The translations under genes were made by a program, and so were the position numbers. DNA of 64,000 nt from Escherichia coli. GTDB taxonomy: Bacteria; Pseudomonadota; Gammaproteobacteria; Enterobacterales; Enterobacteriaceae. Shown in pieces: positions 9,246 through 53,773 of the stretch (position 1 is the first letter of the stretch; each line of letters begins with the position of its first letter). The DNA is taken from NCBI RefSeq assembly GCF_013122565.1, contig NZ_CP053258.1. The stretch is one strand, 5' to 3'. The notes below the pieces were generated by a model. That model was not told the DNA's origin. It ran no database searches and worked only from the letters and a program-made list of their open reading frames with translations.

Positions 9246-9285
9246 ATAAAAAAGCCCCCGGAAGGTGATCTTCCGGGGGCTTTCT
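9246..9285 (-). terminator. his attenuator terminator hairpin
   Basis: GCCCCCGGAAG..CTTCCGGGGGC stem followed by a U-run on the minus-strand transcript, between hisL and hisG. Confidence 0.85.
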
Positions 9286-9344
9286 CATGCGTTCATGCAC
9301 CACTGGAAGATCTGAATGTCTTCCAGCACACATCGCCTGAAAGA

Positions 9345-9395
9345 CTAGTCAGGATGATGGTGATGATGGTGGTGTTTAAATTGAACGCGTGTCAT
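9345..9395 (-). CDS. hisL: his operon leader peptide (MTRVQFKHHHHHHHPD)
   Basis: Minus-strand ATG ACA CGC GTT CAA TTT AAA followed by seven consecutive His codons, CCT GAC TAG; read directly from the sequence. Confidence 0.97.
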   Translation of the reverse strand: MTRVQFKHHHHHHHPD

Positions 9396-9822: not shown

Positions 9823-10647
9823 ATGAAAAAGGTCGCAATTGTCGGGTTAGGGTGGTTAGGCATGCCGCTGGCGATGTCACTTTCAGCGCGAGGCTGGCAA
9901 GTCACCGGGAGTAAAACCACACAAGATGGTGTCGAAGCGGCCCGAATGAGTGGCATTGATAGCTATCTGCTTCGCATGGAGCCTGAGTTAGTTTGCGATT
10001 CTGACGATCTGGATGCCCTGATGGATGCCGATGCGCTGGTCATTACGCTTCCGGCACGTCGTAGCGGCCCCGGCGATGAGTTCTATTTACAAGCGGTACA
10101 AGAGTTAGTGGATAGCGCGCTGGCTCATCGTATTCCCCGCATTATTTTCACCAGCTCAACATCTGTCTATGGCGATGCGCAAGGCACGGTGAAAGAAACC
10201 ACCCCGCGTAATCCGGTAACCAACAGTGGACGAGTATTAGAAGAACTCGAAGACTGGCTGCACAATTTACCCGGTACTTCGGTCGATATTCTGCGTCTTG
10301 CGGGGCTGGTCGGACCGGGACGTCATCCCGGACGCTTCTTTGCCGGAAAAACTGCGCCTGATGGTGAATATGGTGTTAATTTAGTCCATTTAGAAGATGT
10401 TATTGGCGCTATCACCCTGTTGTTACAGGCACCTAAAGGCGGACACATCTATAATATATGTGCGCCAGCTCACCCTGCGCGTAATGTTTTCTATCCGCAG
10501 ATGGCCCGTTTACTGGGGCTGGAACCTCCGCAGTTCCGAAATAGTCTGGACAGCGGAAAAGGTAAGATTATTGATGGCAGTCGGATTTGTAATGAACTGG
10601 GATTTGAATACCAGTATCCCGATCCGCTGGTAATGCCGCTGGAGTAA
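9823..10647 (+). CDS. yeeZ: NAD(P)-binding Rossmann-fold protein, epimerase/dehydratase-like
   Basis: 274 aa, N-terminal GxxGxxG (IVGLGWLG); matches YeeZ by sequence and by position. Confidence 0.9.
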   Translation: MKKVAIVGLGWLGMPLAMSLSARGWQVTGSKTTQDGVEAARMSGIDSYLLRMEPELVCDSDDLDALMDADALVITLPARRSGPGDEFYLQAVQELVDSALAHRIPRIIFTSSTSVYGDAQGTVKETTPRNPVTNSGRVLEELEDWLHNLPGTSVDILRLAGLVGPGRHPGRFFAGKTAPDGEYGVNLVHLEDVIGAITLLLQAPKGGHIYNICAPAHPARNVFYPQMARLLGLEPPQFRNSLDSGKGKIIDGSRICNELGFEYQYPDPLVMPLE

Positions 10648-11622: not shown

Positions 11623-11710
11623 AGAAAAATTATTATGACAAGCCTCTCATTCTCTTGTCATTTCCCCCCCATTTAGGCACAATGCGCCGCTGTCAAAAAA
11701 TGACTAAAAA

Positions 11711-11740
11711 CCGACGTTTCATCAGCGTCGGTTATTTTTT
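11711..11740 (+). terminator. rho-independent terminator after yeeY
   Basis: CCGACG-loop-CGTCGG hairpin followed by a T-run. Confidence 0.6.
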
Positions 11741-11888
11741 GCTTCAAACCAATCATTCATACCAAGAGGCCGGGCTTCGTACCGGATAGATATTTACTAA
11801 AAATCGACAGTTGTTGTCGCTGAGGAATCCAAAAAAATGGGGCAATTTTTTGCTTACGCGACGGTTATCACCGTAAAGGAGAATGACC

Positions 11889-34427: not shown

Positions 34428-34629
34428 CGAAATACTCTGGCAGTTATAAACGTTTATTTTTTTACTGTTTGTGATCTGCTTTCCGAACTTATTAAAAAGT
34501 CTCCCGCTTCACGGAGGCTTTTGTTATTGTCCTTTGTGCTTCTCGTCAGTAAATCATCAGGGATGATGTGAAGATTAAATGTAAAACAATTGTTTTGCTA
34601 TAACAATAAATTAACTGGGAGGTTTTATC

Positions 34630-35544
34630 ATGATTTCTGCGGCGACACTTAATTCAGAACTCATTAATAAAATCGCGCAGGATTTTGCGCAGGCGACCAG
34701 CCTTGCGGTTGTCGTGGTCAATATTCACGGCGATGAAATTTCCGAGCTGTTTAACTTCACTCCATTTTGTCAGATGATGCGGCAACACCCTCAGCTAAGC
34801 ACTCGATGTCGCATGAGTGATCGTTGTGGGGGCCTGGAAGCCTCTAAGTCCGATCAGCCTTGTATTTATCGCTGTCATGCCGGATTAACCGATTTCTCTA
34901 TTCCTCTGGTAATCGCCGGACATTTAGTTGGTTTTGTATTGTGCGGGCAAGTTCGTCTGCGTAATGATGATGTCGATTTGGTTGATATTCTGAATGTCGA
35001 TGATTGCTGGCAGGCAGATCCCGAATTACTTAATGAATTCCGCAAAGTCCCTGAGATGGATTACTCAAGAGTTATGGCCTCTGCTGATTTGTTGAAGTTG
35101 ATTGTGGAAAATTGCCTCAAAAAACAACTCAATTTTGTGGTTATTAAAGAAAACAAATCTCAGTCAGATTCGGTGCGCCAGACTCGTGCGCCTAATCCCC
35201 ACGACAATAAAATGAAAAAAGCTTTACGCTATATTGATGCACATTTATCAGACGATTTGCGTCTGGAGGATGTCGCCTCACATGTTTACCTAAGCCCTTA
35301 TTATTTCAGTAAGTTATTTAAGAAATACCATGGAATCGGGTTTAATGCGTGGGTAAACCAACAACGGATGGCCAGCGCTCGTGAGTTACTGTGCCATAGC
35401 GACTGGAGCATCGCCAGCATTGCGCGTAATTTAGGTTTTTCCCAAACCAGTTATTTTTGCAAAGTTTTCCGTCAGACTTATCAGGTTACGCCGCAGGTGT
35501 ATCGGCAGCAAGTGAATGAAAATGCGGCGATGGAAATGGTATAG
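34630..35544 (+). CDS. pocR: AraC-family regulator of pdu/cob (PocR)
   Basis: 304 aa; N-terminal PocR sensory domain and C-terminal AraC-type HTH. Confidence 0.93.
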   Translation: MISAATLNSELINKIAQDFAQATSLAVVVVNIHGDEISELFNFTPFCQMMRQHPQLSTRCRMSDRCGGLEASKSDQPCIYRCHAGLTDFSIPLVIAGHLVGFVLCGQVRLRNDDVDLVDILNVDDCWQADPELLNEFRKVPEMDYSRVMASADLLKLIVENCLKKQLNFVVIKENKSQSDSVRQTRAPNPHDNKMKKALRYIDAHLSDDLRLEDVASHVYLSPYYFSKLFKKYHGIGFNAWVNQQRMASARELLCHSDWSIASIARNLGFSQTSYFCKVFRQTYQVTPQVYRQQVNENAAMEMV

Positions 35545-35654
35545 AGTAAATGCCCCAAAAAAAGAGGACGGTTTAAATAAACTCTGGAATGAATAATTAA
35601 CGTTATTTACCTGTTATGGGAAAAGTAAAATCAGCTCATAACATACGCTGACAG

Positions 35655-35905
35655 GTGTGGCACATTTGTGCCTGGGAAGAGGGTGAAAATCCCTCGCAGC
35701 CCCCGCTGCTGTAATGCTGACAAACCCGAAAATGCCACTGATCGCGAGATTGGGAAGGTCGGGAGAGGATGACGCTAAGCCAGAAGACCAGTCTGTCAGT
35801 CAATACCAACAACTTCGGTGGGAAGTGGGTTGCCCGGAAGCGTTCGGTAGAGTACAGGCGCGTCTTTATACCCCTACCACCCTGAAAGGATCAGGGTATG
35901 GCGGC
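35655..35905 (+). promoter_or_regulatory. cobalamin (AdoCbl) riboswitch
   Basis: Conserved elements read directly: GGGAAGAGGGTGAAAATCCCTCGCAGCCCCCGCTGCTGTAA, GCCACTG...GGGAAGGTCGGG, and B12 box AAGCCAGAAGACCAGTC. Confidence 0.75.
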
Positions 35906-36028
35906 ATCATTTAGTTCTTTCATCGCAGTGCCGACAGGCACCAGGGATGCATTCAAGGTGTGGCAATATTGTTTCATGGCTTATCAACCAGAGCGCCATT
36001 ACAGGAAATTAAGTGGAGGGCGAGAGGC

Positions 36029-36466
36029 ATGAAAACGATAAAACCCGAATCGATAGCTCTTTTTTGCCTCTTATCTGGAGATGTGGATCTGGCGAAACAT
36101 CTGGCGGAAATATTGCCAATAACCTGTTTTGTTGGTGAGGACTGGCAGCAAGATTTCCAGCCTCTTAACGGTGGGCCTGTGCAATCGTTATCAGATGCGT
36201 ATAGCGATTATTCAGTGCTGCTATTGATAGCAGCTGAAAGCGAGATATCCGTACCAGAATGGCTCGCTCATTCTGAGGGAACGACGGTAATTTTGATTGC
36301 AGAACACAATGCCCGTTTACTGACTGGTCCGGCTGGTGGGGCTGTAGCATTAATCCATTATCTGAATGAAATCTGTCATTCCAGAGAAACCGCTGTCAAT
36401 GACGCATTTTGTCATACGTTAACACGAGGAAGTCGGGCTATTCCACAATGCCATCTTCTTTCGTAA
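36029..36466 (+). CDS. hypothetical protein downstream of the B12 riboswitch (ORF may extend to GTG 35960)
   Basis: ORF 35960..36466; internal ATG at 36029 is preceded by a GGAGGG Shine-Dalgarno; no family recognised by eye; sits where the cbi genes would be. Confidence 0.4.
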   Translation: MKTIKPESIALFCLLSGDVDLAKHLAEILPITCFVGEDWQQDFQPLNGGPVQSLSDAYSDYSVLLLIAAESEISVPEWLAHSEGTTVILIAEHNARLLTGPAGGAVALIHYLNEICHSRETAVNDAFCHTLTRGSRAIPQCHLLS

Positions 36467-36599
36467 TGGATTGAGAATGCTGGATTTTTAATTATATTAC
36501 GCGCAGTATTAATCGTGTAAATGTTTTGCGGTCAGCAACGGTGGGGGATCCATTGTTCTGTTCAATGAATACCATCATACAATTGAATCAGGAGTCGGT

Positions 36600-37145
36600 A
36601 TGATGATTTTGGTGACGGGGGGCGCACGGAGCGGGAAGAGTCGCCACGCAGAGGCGCTTATTGGGAACTCTTCACAGGTTCTGTATATCGCCACCTCGCA
36701 AATCCTTGATGATGAGATGGCTGCACGGATAGAACATCATCGGCAAGGCCGTCCGGCGCATTGGCGCACGGTGGAGCGTTGGCAACATCTTGATGAATTA
36801 ATTCATGTAGACATTAACCCGCATGAAGCTGTGTTGCTGGAATGCGTTACCACAATGGTGACTAATCTGTTGTTTGATTATGGCGGCGATAAAGACCCTG
36901 ATGAATGGGATTATCAGGCGATGGAACAGGCGATTAATGCTGAGATTCAGTCGTTGATTGCCGCCTGCCAACGTTGCCCCGCAAAGGTTGTATTAGTGAC
37001 TAACGAAGTGGGAATGGGGATTGTGCCGGAGAGTCGTCTGGCACGACATTTTCGTGATATTGCCGGGCGGGTAAATCAGCAGCTGGCCGCTGCGGCAAAT
37101 GAAGTATGGCTGGTGGTTTCGGGTATTGGAGTAAAAATCAAATGA
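36600..37145 (+). CDS. cobU: adenosylcobinamide kinase / adenosylcobinamide-phosphate guanylyltransferase
   Basis: 181 aa with P-loop GGARSGKS; matches CobU. Confidence 0.95.
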
Positions 37146-37885
37146 GTAAATTATTTTGGGCGATGCTCTCATTTATTACGCGTCTGCCTGTACCGCGTCG
37201 CTGGTCCCAGGGACTGGATTTCGAGCATTATTCTCGCGGTATTATTACTTTTCCTTTAATTGGATTATTGCTTGGCGCGATTAGCGGGCTGGTCTTCACG
37301 GTGCTGCAGGCATGGTGTGGCGTACCACTGGCGGCACTGTTTAGCGTGCTTGTGCTGGCGCTGATGACCGGGGGATTCCACCTGGACGGCCTCGCCGATA
37401 CCTGTGATGGCGTATTTTCTGCACGTAGCCGCGATCGCATGTTGGAAATCATGCGTGATAGCCGTTTAGGCACCCACGGCGGTCTGGCATTGATTTTTGT
37501 TGTACTGGCAAAGATTCTGGTGTTAAGCGAGTTGGCTCTGCGTGGCGAACCGATCCTTGCATCGCTGGCGGCAGCATGTGCGGTCAGCCGCGGGACTGCC
37601 GCATTATTGATGTATCGTCATCGTTATGCCCGGGAAGAAGGGCTTGGCAATGTGTTCATTGGCAAAATTGATGGGCGACAAACCTGCGTCACACTCGGCT
37701 TAGCCGCTATTTTTGCTGCCGTATTATTGCCGGGTATGCATGGTGTGGCTGCTATGGTGGTGACGGTGGTGGCGATTTTCATCCTCGGTCAGCTTCTCAA
37801 ACGTACGCTGGGCGGGCAAACCGGCGATACGCTGGGAGCTGCTATAGAGCTTGGTGAACTGGTCTTCCTGCTGGCACTGCTATAA
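37142..37885 (+). CDS. cobS: cobalamin 5'-phosphate synthase
   Basis: Translation [21 protein letters not shown]..., polytopic membrane protein; start overlaps the cobU stop (ATGA). Confidence 0.93.
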
Positions 37886-37896
37886 AGAGACGTGAC

Positions 37897-38976
37897 ATGC
37901 AAACACTTGCCGATTTACTGAATACGATCCCTGCTATCGATCCTGCCGCTATGTCGCGTGCACAACGGCATATTGACGGGTTACTCAAACCTGTTGGTAG
38001 CCTTGGAAGGCTGGAGGCGCTTGCCATACAACTGGCAGGAATGCCGGGGTTGAATGGCATACCGTATGTGGGCAAAAAAGCGGTACTGGTTATGTGTGCC
38101 GATCACGGCGTCTGGGAGGAAGGGGTCGCTATTTCCCCAAAAGAAGTGACAGCCATTCAGGCTGAAAATATGACCCGCGGAACAACCGGCGTGTGTGTGC
38201 TGGCAGCACAAGCGGGCGCTAACGTCCACGTAATTGATGTTGGTATTGATACTGTTGAACCTATCCCCGGGCTTATCAACATGCGTGTCGCACGAGGTAG
38301 CGGCAATATTGCTTCAGCTCCGGCAATGAGTCGCCGTCAGGCTGAAAAGTTGCTTTTGGACGTCATATGTTATACGCGGGAGCTGGCAAAAAACGGTGTC
38401 ACGCTGTTTGGTGTAGGTGAACTGGGGATGGCAAACACGACACCGGCAGCGGCAATAGTCAGCACAATCACTGGCCGGGATCCTGAAGAAGTGGTTGGGA
38501 TTGGCGCAAACCTGCCGACAGATAAACTGGCTAATAAAATTGATGTTGTGCGCCGGGCGATTACGTTGAATCAACCAAATCCGCAGGATGGCGTTGATGT
38601 TCTGGCAAAAGTGGGGGGATTTGATTTGGTCGGAATGGCTGGCGTGATGTTAGGCGCTGCTTCCTGCGGTTTACCCGTGTTGCTGGATGGATTTCTTTCT
38701 TATGCTGCTGCGCTCGCAGCCTGCCAGATGTCTCCTGCAATCAAACCGTATCTCATTCCTTCTCACCTGTCGGCAGAAAAAGGGGCGCGTATAGCGCTGT
38801 CGCATTTGGGGCTGGAGCCTTATCTCAATATGGATATGCGTTTAGGTGAGGGGAGTGGCGCAGCTCTGGCGATGCCCATCATCGAAGCTGCTTGTGCGAT
38901 ATACAACAACATGGGCGAACTTGCTGCCAGTAATATTGTTCTACCGGGGAAAACGTCTTCTGATTTGAACAGTTAA
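37897..38976 (+). CDS. cobT: nicotinate-nucleotide--dimethylbenzimidazole phosphoribosyltransferase
   Basis: 359 aa; matches CobT. Confidence 0.95.
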
Positions 38977-49465: not shown

Positions 49466-49541
49466 TGGCTCCTCTGACTGGACTCGAACCAGTGACATAC
49501 GGATTAACAGTCCGCCGTTCTACCGACTGAACTACAGAGGA
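49466..49541 (-). tRNA. asnV: tRNA-Asn (GUU)
   Basis: 76-nt reverse complement of TCCTCTGTAGTTCAGTCGGTAGAACGGCGGACTGTTAATCCGTATGTCACTGGTTCGAGTCCAGTCAGAGGAGCCA; anticodon loop CTGTTAA. Confidence 0.95.
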
Positions 49542-49559
49542 ATCGTGTGAACGGGGCGC

Positions 49560-49588
49560 ATATTAATGGCAGTGCATGGTGATGTCAA
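49560..49588 (-). promoter_or_regulatory. sigma-70 promoter of asnV
   Basis: Minus strand TTGACA, 17 bp spacer, TAATAT, about 20 bp upstream of the tRNA 5' end. Confidence 0.6.
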
Positions 49589-49795
49589 AGGGTGAAATGC
49601 ATTTTTTTGTTTGTTTGCTGTCAATTTCAACAAAGTGATGAGATTTCAATCTTATTGGTTATGAACCATCGTGGTGCATACTCTCCTTTTATGGGGCAGG
49701 GGAACGCGATTGCTGATAAAAAGAACCAATGACGAATCTATCATAATCTCTTATTTGACAGTTGGTTAGCTTGTACATCAACGCCAAAATAAAAC

Positions 49796-49811
49796 TGGCA
49801 AGCATCTTGCA
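49796..49811 (+). promoter_or_regulatory. sigma-54 promoter of nac
   Basis: TGGCAAGCATCTTGCA matches the -24/-12 consensus TGGCAC-N5-TTGCA; nac is known to be sigma-54/NtrC dependent. Confidence 0.7.
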
Positions 49812-49866
49812 ATCTGGTTGTAAGTAATGGCGGCACTTGGGCCGATTCTTAAAAACCGGAGGCAAC

Positions 49867-50784
49867 ATGAACTTCAGACGCCTGAAATACTTCGTAAAAA
49901 TTGTAGATATTGGTAGCCTGACGCAGGCTGCTGAAGTATTGCATATCGCACAACCAGCGCTCAGCCAGCAGGTTGCCACACTCGAAGGTGAGTTAAATCA
50001 ACAACTTTTGATTCGCACAAAACGGGGCGTTACGCCAACAGACGCCGGAAAAATTCTCTATACCCATGCGCGGGCCATTTTACGTCAGTGTGAGCAGGCC
50101 CAACTGGCGGTGCATAACGTTGGTCAGGCATTATCGGGGCAAGTCTCGATTGGCTTTGCGCCAGGAACCGCTGCGTCATCCATCACCATGCCCTTATTAC
50201 AGGCGGTTCGCGCTGAATTCCCGGAGATCGTTATCTATCTTCATGAAAATAGCGGTGCAGTGCTTAACGAAAAACTGATAAATCACCAACTCGATATGGC
50301 GGTAATTTATGAGCATTCCCCTGTGGCTGGGGTATCCAGTCAGGCTTTGCTGAAAGAAGATCTTTTCCTGGTAGGAACTCAAGATTGCCCGGGGCAAAGC
50401 GTCGATGTTAATGCTATTGCGCAAATGAACCTCTTTCTCCCCAGTGATTACAGTGCTGTTAGACTTCGTGTTGATGAGGCTTTTTCCCTACGGCGGCTCA
50501 CGGCAAAAGTCATTGGTGAAATTGAGTCTATTGCCACGCTTACCGCAGCGATTGCCAGCGGCATGGGCGTTGCAGTATTACCCGAATCGGCCGCGCGTTC
50601 GTTATGTGGCGCAGTAAATGGGTGGATGTCACGCATTACCACGCCTTCCATGAGTCTCTCTTTGTCATTAAATTTACCCGCCAGAGCGAACTTATCGCCA
50701 CAGGCACAGGCAGTGAAAGAGTTGTTAATGTCAGTGATTAGTTCCCCAGTGATGGAAAAAAGGCAGTGGCAATTGGTGAGCTAA
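49867..50784 (+). CDS. nac: nitrogen assimilation control protein (LysR family)
   Basis: Translation MNFRRLKYFVKIVDIGSLTQAAEVLHIAQPALSQQV... (305 aa). Confidence 0.95.
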   Translation: MNFRRLKYFVKIVDIGSLTQAAEVLHIAQPALSQQVATLEGELNQQLLIRTKRGVTPTDAGKILYTHARAILRQCEQAQLAVHNVGQALSGQVSIGFAPGTAASSITMPLLQAVRAEFPEIVIYLHENSGAVLNEKLINHQLDMAVIYEHSPVAGVSSQALLKEDLFLVGTQDCPGQSVDVNAIAQMNLFLPSDYSAVRLRVDEAFSLRRLTAKVIGEIESIATLTAAIASGMGVAVLPESAARSLCGAVNGWMSRITTPSMSLSLSLNLPARANLSPQAQAVKELLMSVISSPVMEKRQWQLVS

Positions 50785-50885
50785 GCGTTATATCGGGATG
50801 GAATAAGATGCGGGTTTTTATTATTTGTTATGCCGGGCATTAGACTTTAACAATAACGGGAAATCTGAACTGCCCGGAGTTTACC

Positions 50886-51836
50886 GTGAATTTCCAACAA
50901 CTAAAGATAATCCGCGAGGCTGCACGTCAGGATTACAACCTGACAGAGGTTGCGAATATGCTTTTTACCTCACAGTCAGGCGTCAGCCGTCATATTCGAG
51001 AACTGGAGGATGAACTTGGCATCGAAATATTTGTTCGACGAGGTAAGCGACTGCTGGGCATGACTGAACCGGGCAAAGCATTACTGGTCATTGCAGAACG
51101 TATTCTGAATGAAGCCAGTAATGTTCGTCGGCTTGCAGACCTGTTTACCAACGATACGTCTGGCGTTCTCACTATTGCAACGACGCATACTCAGGCACGT
51201 TATAGCCTGCCAGAGGTTATTAAAGCTTTTCGCGAACTTTTCCCGGAGGTTCGGCTCGAGCTAATCCAGGGGACGCCACAGGAAATTGCGACGTTGTTGC
51301 AAAATGGTGAAGCTGATATTGGTATCGCCAGCGAGCGTTTGAGTAATGACCCGCAGCTCGTCGCCTTCCCGTGGTTTCGTTGGCACCATAGTTTGCTTGT
51401 TCCACTCGATCATCCCTTGACGCAAATTACACCATTGACGCTGGAATCAATAGCGAAGTGGCCATTAATCACTTACCGACAGGGTATTACGGGGCGCTCA
51501 CGCATTGATGACGCATTTGCCCGCAAAGGTTTGCTGGCAGATATTGTATTAAGTGCGCAGGATTCTGATGTCATTAAAACCTATGTTGCTCTTGGGCTGG
51601 GGATCGGATTAGTTGCCGAACAATCCAGCGGTGAACAAGAGGAAAAGAATTTAATCCGCCTGGATACGCGGCATCTTTTCGATGCTAATACTGTCTGGTT
51701 GGGACTCAAGCGAGGACAACTTCAGCGTAACTATGTCTGGCGCTTTCTGGAACTTTGTAATGCAGGACTTTCAGTTGAGGATATCAAGCGGCAGGTGATG
51801 GAAAACAGTGAAGAGGAAATTGATTATCAGATATAG
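50886..51836 (+). CDS. cbl: CysB-like LysR-family regulator Cbl
   Basis: 316 aa MNFQQLKIIREAARQDYNLTEVANMLFTSQSGVSRHI...; GTG start. Confidence 0.95.
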   Translation: MNFQQLKIIREAARQDYNLTEVANMLFTSQSGVSRHIRELEDELGIEIFVRRGKRLLGMTEPGKALLVIAERILNEASNVRRLADLFTNDTSGVLTIATTHTQARYSLPEVIKAFRELFPEVRLELIQGTPQEIATLLQNGEADIGIASERLSNDPQLVAFPWFRWHHSLLVPLDHPLTQITPLTLESIAKWPLITYRQGITGRSRIDDAFARKGLLADIVLSAQDSDVIKTYVALGLGIGLVAEQSSGEQEEKNLIRLDTRHLFDANTVWLGLKRGQLQRNYVWRFLELCNAGLSVEDIKRQVMENSEEEIDYQI

Positions 51837-51837
51837 C

Positions 51838-51868
51838 AAAAAGCCCGCTATAAAAGCGGGCTTTTCAG
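51838..51868. terminator. bidirectional terminator between cbl and asnU
   Basis: AAGCCCGCTATAAAAGCGGGCTTTT hairpin. Confidence 0.75.
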
Positions 51869-51873
51869 AAATT

Positions 51874-51949
51874 TGGCTCCTCTGACTGGACTCGAACCAG
51901 TGACATACGGATTAACAGTCCGCCGTTCTACCGACTGAACTACAGAGGA
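51874..51949 (-). tRNA. asnU: tRNA-Asn (GUU)
   Basis: Identical 76-nt sequence to the copy at 49466..49541. Confidence 0.95.
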
Positions 51950-51965
51950 ATCGCTGTTGAGGCAC

Positions 51966-51993
51966 ATCTTAACGGCGAAAAATCTTTTGTCAA
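51966..51993 (-). promoter_or_regulatory. sigma-70 promoter of asnU
   Basis: Minus strand TTGACA, 16 bp spacer, TAAGAT. Confidence 0.5.
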
Positions 51994-52109
51994 ACCCGAT
52001 TTTTAAATTTCCCAACTGTTTGCCGTTTCTATCAACAGTTTGTTGCATTTGCAGACAATTTGTTGGCGAAAATCTTTGCAGCTTTGCTGATTCTCCCTCA
52101 TTATTTGAA

Positions 52110-53597
52110 ATGTGGTTTCACTTTCTGCAATTAAGGTCGGCTTTGAATATCTCCTCTGCTTTACGCCAGGTTGTTCACGGCACTCGCTGGCACGCTAAAC
52201 GCAAGAGCTACAAAGTGTTGTTCTGGCGCGAGATAACCCCGCTTGCTGTTCCTATCTTCATGGAGAATGCCTGTGTCCTGTTGATGGGGGTTCTGAGCAC
52301 TTTTCTGGTCAGCTGGCTGGGAAAAGATGCGATGGCCGGCGTGGGATTGGCGGACAGCTTCAATATGGTCATTATGGCTTTTTTTGCAGCTATCGATCTT
52401 GGTACTACTGTCGTTGTGGCATTTAGTCTCGGTAAGCGGGATCGACGACGAGCGAGGGTGGCGACGCGGCAGTCATTGGTGATCATGACGTTGTTTGCCG
52501 TACTGTTGGCAACGCTTATTCATCATTTTGGCGAACAAATTATTGATTTCGTCGCGGGTGATGCCACGACAGAAGTTAAAGCACTGGCGTTGACTTATCT
52601 GGAGCTGACGGTACTCAGTTATCCAGCAGCTGCCATCACTCTTATTGGTAGCGGGGCACTTCGTGGTGCAGGGAATACGAAAATACCGCTATTGATTAAC
52701 GGTAGCCTGAATATTCTTAATATTATTATTAGCGGCATATTGATTTACGGCCTTTTCTCCTGGCCGGGACTGGGATTTGTCGGGGCTGGGTTGGGTTTAA
52801 CCATTTCTCGTTATATTGGCGCAGTTGCAATTTTGTGGGTGCTGGCGATTGGTTTTAATCCTGCGCTAAGGATTTCGTTAAAGAGCTATTTTAAACCGCT
52901 GAATTTTAGCATTATCTGGGAAGTCATGGGGATTGGTATTCCAGCAAGTGTCGAATCAGTATTATTTACCAGTGGTCGGTTATTAACCCAAATGTTCGTT
53001 GCCGGGATGGGAACCAGTGTTATTGCCGGAAATTTTATCGCGTTTTCAATTGCGGCTCTTATCAACTTACCCGGAAGTGCGCTCGGCTCTGCTTCTACGA
53101 TCATTACAGGCCGAAGGTTGGGAGTAGGGCAGATAGCTCAAGCAGAGATTCAGTTGCGGCATGTGTTCTGGCTGTCTACTCTTGGATTAACGGCCATCGC
53201 CTGGCTAACGGCTCCCTTTGCCGGGGTTATGGCATCGTTTTACACCCAGGATCCACAGGTTAAACATGTCGTTGTGATTCTGATTTGGCTAAATGCTTTA
53301 TTTATGCCTATTTGGTCCGCCTCATGGGTGCTACCCGCTGGATTTAAAGGTGCTCGTGATGCCCGTTACGCCATGTGGGTTTCGATGTTGAGCATGTGGG
53401 GTTGTCGGGTTGTAGTCGGTTATGTGCTGGGCATCATGCTTGGCTGGGGTGTGGTTGGTGTCTGGATGGGAATGTTTGCCGACTGGGCTGTGCGGGCCGT
53501 GCTGTTTTACTGGCGAATGGTTACTGGACGTTGGCTATGGAAATACCCTCGATCCGAGCCGCAAAAGTGTGAAAAAAAGCCAGTTGTGTCGGAATAA
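52110..53597 (+). CDS. yeeO: MATE-family multidrug/flavin efflux transporter
   Basis: 495 aa from MWFHFLQLRSALNISS...; 12 transmembrane segments; the ORF-track start 51957 would overlap the tRNA and is rejected. Confidence 0.9.
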   Translation: MWFHFLQLRSALNISSALRQVVHGTRWHAKRKSYKVLFWREITPLAVPIFMENACVLLMGVLSTFLVSWLGKDAMAGVGLADSFNMVIMAFFAAIDLGTTVVVAFSLGKRDRRRARVATRQSLVIMTLFAVLLATLIHHFGEQIIDFVAGDATTEVKALALTYLELTVLSYPAAAITLIGSGALRGAGNTKIPLLINGSLNILNIIISGILIYGLFSWPGLGFVGAGLGLTISRYIGAVAILWVLAIGFNPALRISLKSYFKPLNFSIIWEVMGIGIPASVESVLFTSGRLLTQMFVAGMGTSVIAGNFIAFSIAALINLPGSALGSASTIITGRRLGVGQIAQAEIQLRHVFWLSTLGLTAIAWLTAPFAGVMASFYTQDPQVKHVVVILIWLNALFMPIWSASWVLPAGFKGARDARYAMWVSMLSMWGCRVVVGYVLGIMLGWGVVGVWMGMFADWAVRAVLFYWRMVTGRWLWKYPRSEPQKCEKKPVVSE

Positions 53598-53650
53598 ACG
53601 ACAAAATGCAGATTATTTCAGCAAACGATTTCAAATTTAAAAAACAGGCT

Positions 53651-53679
53651 TTGACATTGTGGGTGGGCATCGCTAATAT
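53651..53679 (+). promoter_or_regulatory. sigma-70 promoter of asnW
   Basis: TTGACA (53651..53656), 17 bp spacer, TAATAT (53674..53679), 19 bp upstream of the tRNA. Confidence 0.65.
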
Positions 53680-53697
53680 TCGCCTCGTTCTCACGAT

Positions 53698-53773
53698 TCC
53701 TCTGTAGTTCAGTCGGTAGAACGGCGGACTGTTAATCCGTATGTCACTGGTTCGAGTCCAGTCAGAGGAGCCA
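53698..53773 (+). tRNA. asnW: tRNA-Asn (GUU)
   Basis: TCCTCTGTAGTTCAGTCGGTAGAACGGCGGACTGTTAATCCGTATGTCACTGGTTCGAGTCCAGTCAGAGGAGCCA ending in CCA. Confidence 0.95.

Follow-up and report, generated by a model that had tools for sequence, protein, structure and literature searches.

Close relatives of the locus described here are known from Salmonella. The leader of the Salmonella cob operon, which is an adenosylcobalamin (AdoCbl) riboswitch with a hairpin that sequesters the ribosome-binding site, controls the translation of cbiA: vitamin B12 blocks translation initiation at cbiA by way of this hairpin. Richter-Dahlfors and Andersson, in 1992, and Ravnum and Andersson, in 1997 and 2001, are said to have found that B12 repression in Salmonella acts on cbiA translation and, reportedly, that it needs the start of this first open reading frame (ORF), which would be part of the control region. 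Here we consider a 64,000-nucleotide (nt) stretch of an Escherichia coli-type chromosome (contig NZ_CP053258.1, hereafter the window) from a strain with the propanediol (pdu) island. A 145-codon ORF lies there between a cobalamin riboswitch and the cobinamide-salvage genes cobU, cobS, and cobT (together, cobUST), which follow downstream on the same strand. By homology, this ORF descends from cbiG, the operon's eighth gene, of which it is the first third; we refer to it as cbiG'. Our best overall explanation, toward which we lean, is that cbiG' encodes a small protein that comes from the N terminus of CbiG, has no catalytic activity, and is repressed by B12, and that its translation also links the riboswitch to cobUST.

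The leader in the window aligns by position with that of the Salmonella cob operon in its aptamer, a conserved box downstream of it, a hairpin whose loop contains the Shine-Dalgarno sequence, and the start codon. It differs in that the gated ORF is a 44-codon stub of cbiA coupled to cbiG', rather than the first enzyme of a 20-gene operon, and in that about 250 nt upstream of the aptamer are missing. Compared with CbiG from Salmonella or Citrobacter, the product of cbiG' is homologous over residues 1 to ~125-130, its gene has the same place relative to pocR, the riboswitch, and cobU, and the alpha/beta fold predicted for it is similar to that of the N-terminal part of 3EEQ, a homologue of CbiG. 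On the other hand, it has 145 residues rather than 351, it lacks CbiG_mid (140-219) and CbiG_C (231-347), and no other corrin-ring genes are present in its genome context. CobE, from the aerobic pathway, shows that one domain of CbiG can exist as a small protein by itself: it is a stand-alone homologue of the C-terminal domain of CbiG. CobE corresponds to the other end of CbiG, and it is part of a working pathway instead of being a relic.

We found a similar reduced locus in Hafnia paralvei ATCC 29927 (L058 11266-13000). It has the riboswitch, a 118-amino-acid (aa) in-frame fusion of a CbiA stub to residues 173-257 of CbiF, a full-length cbiG, about the first 7 codons of cbiH, and then unrelated DNA. 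As in Escherichia, pocR, the riboswitch, the start of cbiA, and cbiG are present, the rest of cbi is deleted, and the break in cbiA is at about the same codon. Unlike in Escherichia, cbiG is full length, with all three Pfam domains, it is no more diverged than the cbiG of Yersinia, and no cobUST follows. The reduction in H. paralvei looks recent and independent.

A truncated cbiG within a deletion scar

A preliminary description of the window, made from the sequence by eye, reported an uncharacterised ORF of 168 codons from a GTG at 35960, or of 145 codons from an ATG at 36029, ending at 36464-36466. These coordinates are correct, as is the GGAGGG ribosome-binding site at 36015-20, 8 nt upstream of the ATG, and matches to RF00174 and to Pfam CobU confirm that the ORF lies between the riboswitch (35636-35810) and cobU (36600). 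The description also saw no P-loop in the ORF, and indeed there is none. The GTG did not hold up as a start and is an accident of E. coli, as the frame upstream of the ATG contains stops in E. albertii, E. marmotae, E. whittamii, E. fergusonii, and two further lineages. In near-identical genomes, the coding sequence in RefSeq starts at the ATG (145 codons) and is called a hypothetical protein (WP_000849049.1 and relatives). The gene is thus already in the databases, variously as "cobalamin biosynthesis protein," "protein CbiG," or "hypothetical protein"; the exact protein from the window is WP_171459236.1, a "cobalamin biosynthesis protein."

The relationship to CbiG is clear from several comparisons. 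The NCBIfam model for CbiG (NF004463, cobalt-precorrin-5A hydrolase) matches the ORF over model positions 1-125 of 351 (E = 3.8e-19), with a score of 69.1 bits as against an equivalog cutoff of 546 bits. With tblastn, the ORF matches residues 1-119 of the CbiG proteins of Salmonella and Citrobacter at 42-45% identity (E = 3e-22 to 3e-24); overall, it is 42-47% identical to enteric CbiG over residues 1 to ~125-130. When we searched 1.84 billion representative proteins with a HMMER profile of the ORF's family, we obtained only 34 matches, all of which were enterobacterial CbiG sequences or fragments. A search of PDB by sequence found nothing (best E = 1.6), and a 14-bit Pfam match to Nup96 is not credible.

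In Salmonella CbiG, Pfam recognizes CbiG_N (PF11760) at 54-134, CbiG_mid (PF11761) at 140-219, and CbiG_C (PF01890) at 231-347. Salmonella and Hafnia CbiG showed all three domains in the same run in which the 145-aa product of cbiG' lacked this ~350-aa architecture. The ORF ends at the boundary between CbiG_N and CbiG_mid and keeps the first 37% of CbiG. Judging from these alignments, the product descends from CbiG and cannot be a working cobalt-precorrin-5A hydrolase. We also disfavor a role as a hydrolase because cbiA-F and cbiH-P are not at the locus and because a true cbiG is found in 0 of 5,426 complete E. coli genomes.

The sequences on either side of cbiG' come from the same operon. Between the riboswitch and cbiG', in another frame, is the 44-codon stub, which the preliminary description overlooked. 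Its ATG at 35898 aligns exactly with the start codon of cbiA, and it resembles CbiA over about its first 14 codons only (MAASFSSFIAVPTG vs. MAARHHAFILAGTG). Comparing codons 15-44 of the stub to the 3' end of cbiF and to all of cbiA through cbiF gave no homology above shuffles and only a faint resemblance (HYRK and HEYRKA). The sources of these codons, and of codons ~128-139 of cbiG', are not traceable by sequence comparison. The TGA of the stub overlaps the ATG of cbiG' as ATGA.

On the other side, between cbiG' and cobU, lies the decayed 3' end of cbiP. There are weak collinear tblastn matches to CbiP 454-506, and two blocks of nucleotides, 36498-36515 and 36569-36599, match the 3' end of cbiP from Citrobacter and Salmonella (z = 4.3 and 8.7 vs. 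shuffles). The blocks are collinear, with a net 5-nt indel between them. In full operons, the stop codon of cbiP overlaps the ATG of cobU (again as ATGA). The cbiP-like sequence begins at about 36447, out of frame with cbiG' and overlapping its last codons, which explains why the ORF stops at 36466.

The ancestor had a Salmonella-type array, pdu-pocR-riboswitch-cbiABCDETFGHJKLMNQOP-cobUST. One deletion removed the DNA from about codon 15 of cbiA to just upstream of cbiG, and another removed the DNA from about codon 130 of cbiG to about codon 453 of cbiP. This left the 44-codon cbiA' stub, the first third of cbiG, and the non-coding tail of cbiP before cobU. Because of the homology to the N terminus of CbiG, the alignment of the leader and the ATG to those of cbiA, and the cbiP tail, and also because other genera with pocR have the full cbiA..cbiG series while complete E. 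coli genomes have no true cbiG, we are nearly certain that the locus is a double deletion scar, cbiA'-cbiG'-'cbiP-cobUST.

The preliminary description had already suggested a deletion scar, of a different kind, in which fragments of the first (cbiA) and last (cbiP) genes were fused in one frame. Fragments of cbiA and cbiP do sit at both edges of the interval. But the cbiA fragment is a separate ORF in another frame, and the cbiP fragment adjoins cobU, is non-coding and out of frame, and lies mostly past the stop. The ORF itself matches residues 1 to ~125 of CbiG, and no part of CbiA or CbiP aligns with it. So the scar stands, and the fusion is refuted.

Conservation and selection across Escherichia

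Among complete E. coli genomes, 644 of 5,426 have both the riboswitch and the whole ORF. We sampled nine of the 644 at even steps through the ranking, and all nine have an intact annotated coding sequence. Most other E. coli keep the 3' part next to cobU, which begins either at 36126, beside a remnant of pduV, or at 36295, beside insertion sequence (IS) remnants. The latter arrangement is found in K-12, where the preliminary description proposed to look for the ORF: the 3' remnant is there and the 5' part is gone. The K-12-type remnant (36295-36466 in the window) and the window share only 85-88% identity, compared with ~98% for the adjacent CobU protein (L002). In the remnant, 9 nt are deleted in frame and the stop comes 9 codons early, and both of these are also found in some full-length alleles of 136 aa. 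NCBI's Prokaryotic Genome Annotation Pipeline (PGAP) labels the shorter remnants as pseudogenes. In MG1655, the remnant is left unannotated, and yeeH and IS5H are just beyond it.

Homologues of 144-156 codons are found in E. coli, E. albertii, E. marmotae, E. ruysiae, E. whittamii, E. fergusonii, and one further species-level lineage, and in all seven lineages that we examined they have the same position (pdu-pocR-riboswitch-stub-cbiG'). The ORF is always found together with pdu, pocR, and the riboswitch and disappears along with them. To see beyond Escherichia, we scanned around PocR in one genome per bacterial species. The full cbiA..cbiG series is present in Citrobacter, Salmonella, Klebsiella, Yersinia, and many others. 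Besides Escherichia there were three exceptions: H. paralvei, "Enterobacteriaceae bacterium RIT691," and Tolumonas osonensis. In RIT691, the start of cbiA is fused in frame to an ORF that resembles the N terminus of CbiG, and nac follows. T. osonensis (L071 10900-15000) has pocR, and both the riboswitch and the downstream cbi and cob genes are absent. In Tolumonas, the riboswitch and the CbiG piece are missing together.

In two species of Escherichia, cbiG' is intact next to a damaged or missing cobUST. In E. albertii (L004/L005 10436-11880), cobU is a pseudogene (its ATG has become CTG and the P-loop region is deleted), cobT is deleted, and cobS is intact. In E. fergusonii, cobUST is deleted. 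In a review table drawn from comparative genomics, E. fergusonii is likewise entered separately from the E. coli group that bears CobUST (PMC8123684). The riboswitch still scores 103-113 bits in genomes in which cobU is dead or cobUST is absent (E. albertii, E. fergusonii, and RIT691). Between E. albertii and E. coli, the synonymous divergence (dS) of cobS and ldtA is 1.0-1.3, while that of pduF, pocR, and cbiG' is 0.35-0.55, which implies a recombination boundary near cobU. The pdu-pocR-riboswitch-cbiG' block seems to have been exchanged between species of Escherichia. As side observations, the deletion junction in E. fergusonii (L009 ~10500-10540) has a palindrome that resembles repetitive extragenic palindromic (REP) elements, TGTCGGATAAAGCATTTACGCTGTATCCGGCATG, and homology to the window resumes directly after the stop codon of cobT.

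Is the ORF under selection? Its ratio of nonsynonymous to synonymous divergence (dN/dS) is about 0.45 overall. With the Nei-Gojobori method, it is 0.32-0.46 for the pairs of Escherichia lineages that we computed. For its neighbors pduF, pocR, cobU, cobS, cobT, and ldtA, dN/dS is 0.01-0.16 between species and at most 0.25 between two E. coli strains. With a maximum-likelihood codon model with fitted kappa, across six Escherichia lineages, the corresponding ratio (omega) is 0.39-0.77, with a median of ~0.49. In likelihood-ratio tests against omega = 1, p was at most 0.05 for 11 of 15 pairs (0.001-0.008 for 8 of them), and the other four pairs (omega = 0.69-0.77) were not significantly below 1. 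Omega for successive segments (alignment codon columns 1-35, 36-68, 69-88, 89-120, and 121-end) is 0.40, 0.48, 1.43, 0.37, and 0.80. Because synonymous divergence is roughly even across these segments, it is the amino acids that are constrained, rather than the DNA. Between E. fergusonii and the others, omega for the first 67 codons is just 0.15-0.25 (p ~1e-5). As these values are averages over the whole path, both lineages were constrained for most of it.

The frame has also been kept open. The ORF of E. fergusonii is 50% identical and has two 3-codon in-frame indels, and its frame is open. All of the indels in cbiG' are in frame, while the 133-nt cbiP tail has indels of 1, 1, and 6 nt (five taxa). 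Full-length copies have no frameshifts or premature stops in 9 of 9 Escherichia loci or in 8 of 8 diverse E. coli genomes with pdu; in those 8 genomes, the stub is open as well. If the observed substitutions are placed at random, the 145-codon frame stays open in 6.5-13% of trials per species pair, and for three disjoint pairs the product is ~1e-3 (0.065 x 0.128 x 0.118). Within E. coli (eight diverse genomes), the ratio of nonsynonymous to synonymous polymorphism (pN/pS) is 0.48 for cbiG' and 0.72 for the stub. For the stub, omega is ~0.3-1.6 and mostly not different from 1, yet the stub is open everywhere and ends at or inside the start of cbiG'.

We considered whether cbiG' could simply be a pseudogene remnant that is open by luck or history, has no present function, and has not yet degraded. 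Just one third of the parent gene is left, motifs that look catalytic have been lost, evolution is fast, E. coli lineages have deleted it repeatedly, and PGAP calls its shorter remnants pseudogenes. But the ORF is open in every Escherichia species sampled, even in the highly diverged E. fergusonii; most comparisons reject omega = 1, with p ~1e-3 to 1e-6; and staying open by chance in the three disjoint pairs is improbable. Furthermore, true decay over the same period looks different: the cbiP tail has frameshifting indels, and cobU of E. albertii has lost its start. We consider a plain pseudogene quite improbable and think it very likely that cbiG' is not decaying freely but is translated and held open by selection. 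Besides the scar, the preliminary description had offered a genuine small protein under B12 control, and would have called the ORF a pseudogene remnant if it aligned clearly as an inactive fragment of a cbi gene and lacked conserved full-length homologues. The ORF is a fragment of a cbi gene, but conserved homologues of the fragment exist. At the level of sequence, the genus-wide length, omega below 1, and the conserved riboswitch, ribosome-binding-site hairpin, and overlap all agree with a genuine small protein.

Probable coupling to the riboswitch and possible roles

The riboswitch is almost invariant across Escherichia species, even though dS is ~0.4 for the neighboring genes. Downstream of the aptamer, a hairpin (CCCTGA-aagga-TCAGGG, 35880-35896) holds the Shine-Dalgarno sequence in its loop, 1 nt before the ATG at 35898. 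The aptamer, the box CAACAACTTCGGTGGGAAGTGGGTTG, the hairpin, and the start codon align column by column with the cbiA leaders of Salmonella, Citrobacter, and Klebsiella. Both the minimum-free-energy and the centroid folds contain the hairpin, and in the leader alignment one of its T-A pairs is G-C in Klebsiella. The folding of the leader and start region as a whole is not special (z = -0.68). These parts are conserved far better than the two ORFs are.

There are also signs that translation of the stub and of cbiG' is coupled. The ATGA overlap is the layout in six lineages, and in 9 of 9 Escherichia loci the stop/start overlap is present and both frames are open. A G-rich, Shine-Dalgarno-like run before cbiG' is kept in every species, though the stub peptide is otherwise poorly conserved. 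(A consensus hairpin that might hide this run is weak, at -7.7 kcal/mol with a covariation term of +0.31 and a few compensatory pairs.) In E. fergusonii, the stub overlaps the ORF by 20 nt and ends at the former cbiF stop; in intact operons, cbiF and cbiG overlap by 20 nt, and neighboring cbi and cob genes are coupled in similar ways. In some strains of E. fergusonii, the stub and the ORF have become one continuous frame through a small indel (protein P0191, 199 aa, 29 contigs), which makes a fourth layout. Given these layouts, ribosomes gated by the riboswitch are, it appears, fed into the cbiG' frame by three routes: by the ATGA overlap, by the 20-nt overlap, and by in-frame fusion, as in RIT691.

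We envision that, as long as AdoCbl is bound to the riboswitch, the hairpin stays closed and masks the Shine-Dalgarno sequence at the old start of cbiA. When B12 is low, ribosomes would translate the stub, terminate at the ATGA, and start on the cbiG' frame, which also has its own GGAGGG. So B12 should repress the protein. This scheme is drawn from the conserved anatomy and from the published mechanism for cbiA in Salmonella, and we think that expression of cbiG' is probably coupled to the riboswitch. In RNA sequencing (RNA-seq) of strain LF82, the gene LF82_328, which is annotated as "CbiG," had 16.7 and 13.0 reads per kilobase per million mapped reads (RPKM), similar to pocR (PMC4509574). 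We also note that just 91 nt separate the stop codon of pocR from the riboswitch in Escherichia (35545-35635 in the window), while Salmonella, Citrobacter, and Klebsiella have ~250 nt more upstream of the aptamer, which would hold the promoter and 5' leader of the Salmonella cob operon. The Escherichia riboswitch message may arise by read-through from pocR.

If translation is what matters, then the encoded products might not. The stub and cbiG' could be a translated spacer: ribosomes moving along ~570 nt of message would shield it from decay or Rho-dependent termination, and B12 control would thereby extend to cobUST. A premature stop would then have polar effects, and selection would act against it. 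Such a spacer accounts well for the stub, with its conserved stop/start overlap and its omega near 1, and there is no terminator-like site from the ORF to cobU. In most Escherichia, cobUST is next on the same strand, and intact operons couple neighboring cbi and cob genes likewise (cbiF/cbiG by 20 nt and cbiP/cobU by ATGA). It also fits with the mechanism reported for Salmonella, in which repression at cbiA translation is said to need the start of the first ORF. But a spacer needs no amino-acid constraint, and we see omega of about 0.4 in three segments of cbiG' and of about 0.2 in its first 67 codons relative to E. fergusonii, without any reduction in synonymous change. Nor does a spacer explain why the ORF and the riboswitch persist when cobU is dead or cobUST is absent, and 133 nt between cbiG' and cobU are untranslated in any case. 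Also, most E. coli run cobUST without this whole arrangement. We rather doubt that a spacer is the whole story.

Because of the amino-acid constraint, and because cbiG' persists where cobU is dead or cobUST is gone, we favor a role for the protein over a pure relay; as to whether the function belongs to the protein itself, rather than merely to its translation, we are evenly divided. We think that the ORF most likely survives as a small, non-catalytic protein on the alpha/beta fold of the CbiG N terminus (a binding module and not an enzyme), with selection acting on the amino-acid sequence and with a role that goes with the pdu-pocR-riboswitch block and not with cobUST. Translation of cbiG' could additionally keep the riboswitch-gated message covered by ribosomes up to cobUST, as an added or an earlier benefit. 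As to the fold, the AlphaFold2 model has a beta-alpha-beta core (mean predicted local distance difference test [pLDDT] score of 75.7, predicted TM-score [pTM] of 0.70), and Foldseek's most specific structural match for it was the CbiG homologue 3eeq_B (probability 0.99, TM-score 0.51). No match in PDB had E of 0.001 or below, and besides 3eeq_B there were only generic Rossmann-like folds.

A number of observations weigh against a functional small protein. First, cbiG' evolves about 10 times faster than its neighbors (dN of 0.13-0.20 vs. 0.005-0.06), and the loop at columns 69-88 and the C-terminal tail look neutral. Second, the motifs GATG, DK..DPAVVV(I/L)D, SL(L/V)SGH.GGAN, and PVITTATDVN are invariant in the N termini of 22 genuine enterobacterial CbiG proteins, and in the same alignment, all four are replaced or deleted in the family of cbiG', which also has a net in-frame deletion of 8 residues. 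Third, none of the family's proteins has any match in Pfam, even at E up to 10, and the AlphaFold2 model leaned on true CbiG sequences that were in its alignment. Fourth, 88% of complete E. coli genomes have lost the 5' part of the ORF, along with pdu, and the alleles of 136 aa show that 9 residues can be missing. Finally, protein polymorphisms within E. fergusonii are evenly spread (11 in residues 1-67 and 10 in residues 68-156), which gives no sign of present-day constraint there, though they are too few to decide; the loss of cobUST could be recent.

A bolder proposal is that cbiG' has been neofunctionalised and now encodes a small protein, repressed by B12, that serves the pdu/pocR module in trans. 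One candidate role would be to hold or hand over incomplete or complete corrinoids. Another candidate role would be to damp the PocR-dependent expression of pdu until B12 is present: with the riboswitch off, there would be no cbiG' protein and pdu would be on. Action in trans would explain why the riboswitch and the N terminus of CbiG stay together in lineages without cobUST, why three gene layouts feed gated ribosomes into the same frame, and why H. paralvei independently kept cbiG alone. There are analogies in other bacteria: RNAs that are controlled by riboswitches gate the expression of eut and pdu in Enterococcus and Listeria. If cbiG' does act in trans, it would be a protein counterpart of these RNAs. 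On balance, we think that this proposal is unlikely.

Surroundings and significance

Around cbiG', the order of features in the window is pduA (on the minus strand), pduF, pocR, the cobalamin riboswitch, cbiG', cobU, cobS, cobT, and ldtA. The coordinates are in the table. Scanning 35500-36700 for promoters and terminators gave counts that were not above those for shuffles. This includes the promoter-like site after the stop of cbiG', which is not above chance and is poorly conserved across species. The same scan found no terminator-like site on the + strand between cbiG' and cobU.

Table. Coordinates of the riboswitch, the cbi remnants, and the adjacent genes in the window
Feature	Position	Strand	Evidence
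pocR, regulator of the pdu/cob regulon and left neighbor of the module	34630-35544	+	ORF list; annotated as pocR in the near-identical E. coli 6EVA locus
Cobalamin (AdoCbl) riboswitch aptamer	35636-35810	+	RF00174, 107.7 bits vs. gathering score of 31.5, full length
Putative expression platform: conserved box CAACAACTTCGGTGGGAAGTGGGTTG and hairpin at the ribosome-binding site	35811-35897	+	Leader alignment with cbiA of Salmonella, Citrobacter, and Klebsiella
cbiA' stub ORF, 44 codons	35898-36032	+	ATG aligned with the cbiA ATG; in a different frame from cbiG'
GGAGGG, Shine-Dalgarno sequence of cbiG', within the cbiA' coding region	36015-36020	+	Sequence; 8 nt before the ATG
cbiG' ORF, 145 codons, relic of CbiG residues 1 to ~130	36029-36466	+	NCBIfam NF004463, tblastn, alignment with 22 CbiG N termini
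Decayed, non-coding remnant of the cbiP 3' end (roughly 53 final codons), reaching the cobU ATG	36447-36599	+	Collinear tblastn and nucleotide matches
Promoter-like TTGAGA-16-TATATT, inside the cbiP tail, after the stop of cbiG'	36471-36498	+	Sequence scan
cobU	36600-37145	+	Pfam CobU, E = 4e-64
cobS	37142-37885	+	ORF list; annotation of the near-identical locus
cobT	37897-38976	+	ORF list; annotation of the near-identical locus

Several known RNAs are found elsewhere in the window. Between pduF and pocR, on the opposite strand, there is a match to the small RNA STnc230 (34486-34569, minus strand, 74.8 bits), which is also present in E. fergusonii and E. albertii. Farther away are a His operon leader (9246-9369, minus strand, 131.6 bits), STnc240 (11668-11742, + strand), and three tRNA genes with identical scores that start at 49469, 51877, and 53698 (region 49469-53770). 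The His leader, STnc240, and the tRNAs are as expected for the part of the E. coli map that runs his ... pdu ... cobUST ... tRNA-Asn/nac.

The mechanism of the riboswitch and CbiG itself are textbook material, and cbiG' is annotated but apparently unstudied. In the literature, we found no paper on the anatomy of the scar, on the cbiA stub and its ATGA coupling, on the genus-wide conservation of the ORF or the selection on it, or on its survival without cobUST; for the ORF itself, we found only the RNA-seq table entry for LF82_328.

The scar is direct sequence evidence that the ancestor of Escherichia had a Salmonella-type pdu-pocR-cbi-cob array at this very site and that the genes for ring synthesis were lost by internal deletions. 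This bears on the old account of "loss and reacquisition" of B12 synthesis in enteric bacteria. In annotations, the product of cbiG' should not be named CbiG or counted as a capacity to make B12. More broadly, cbiG' would be a clean natural case of a deletion relic that has been translated and selected for a genus-long span and is still wired to its riboswitch. Should the protein have a role of its own, then it would give a first lead on the uncharacterised N-terminal region of CbiG, and there may be an unnoticed B12-responsive component of propanediol use in E. coli with pdu, including adherent-invasive strains.

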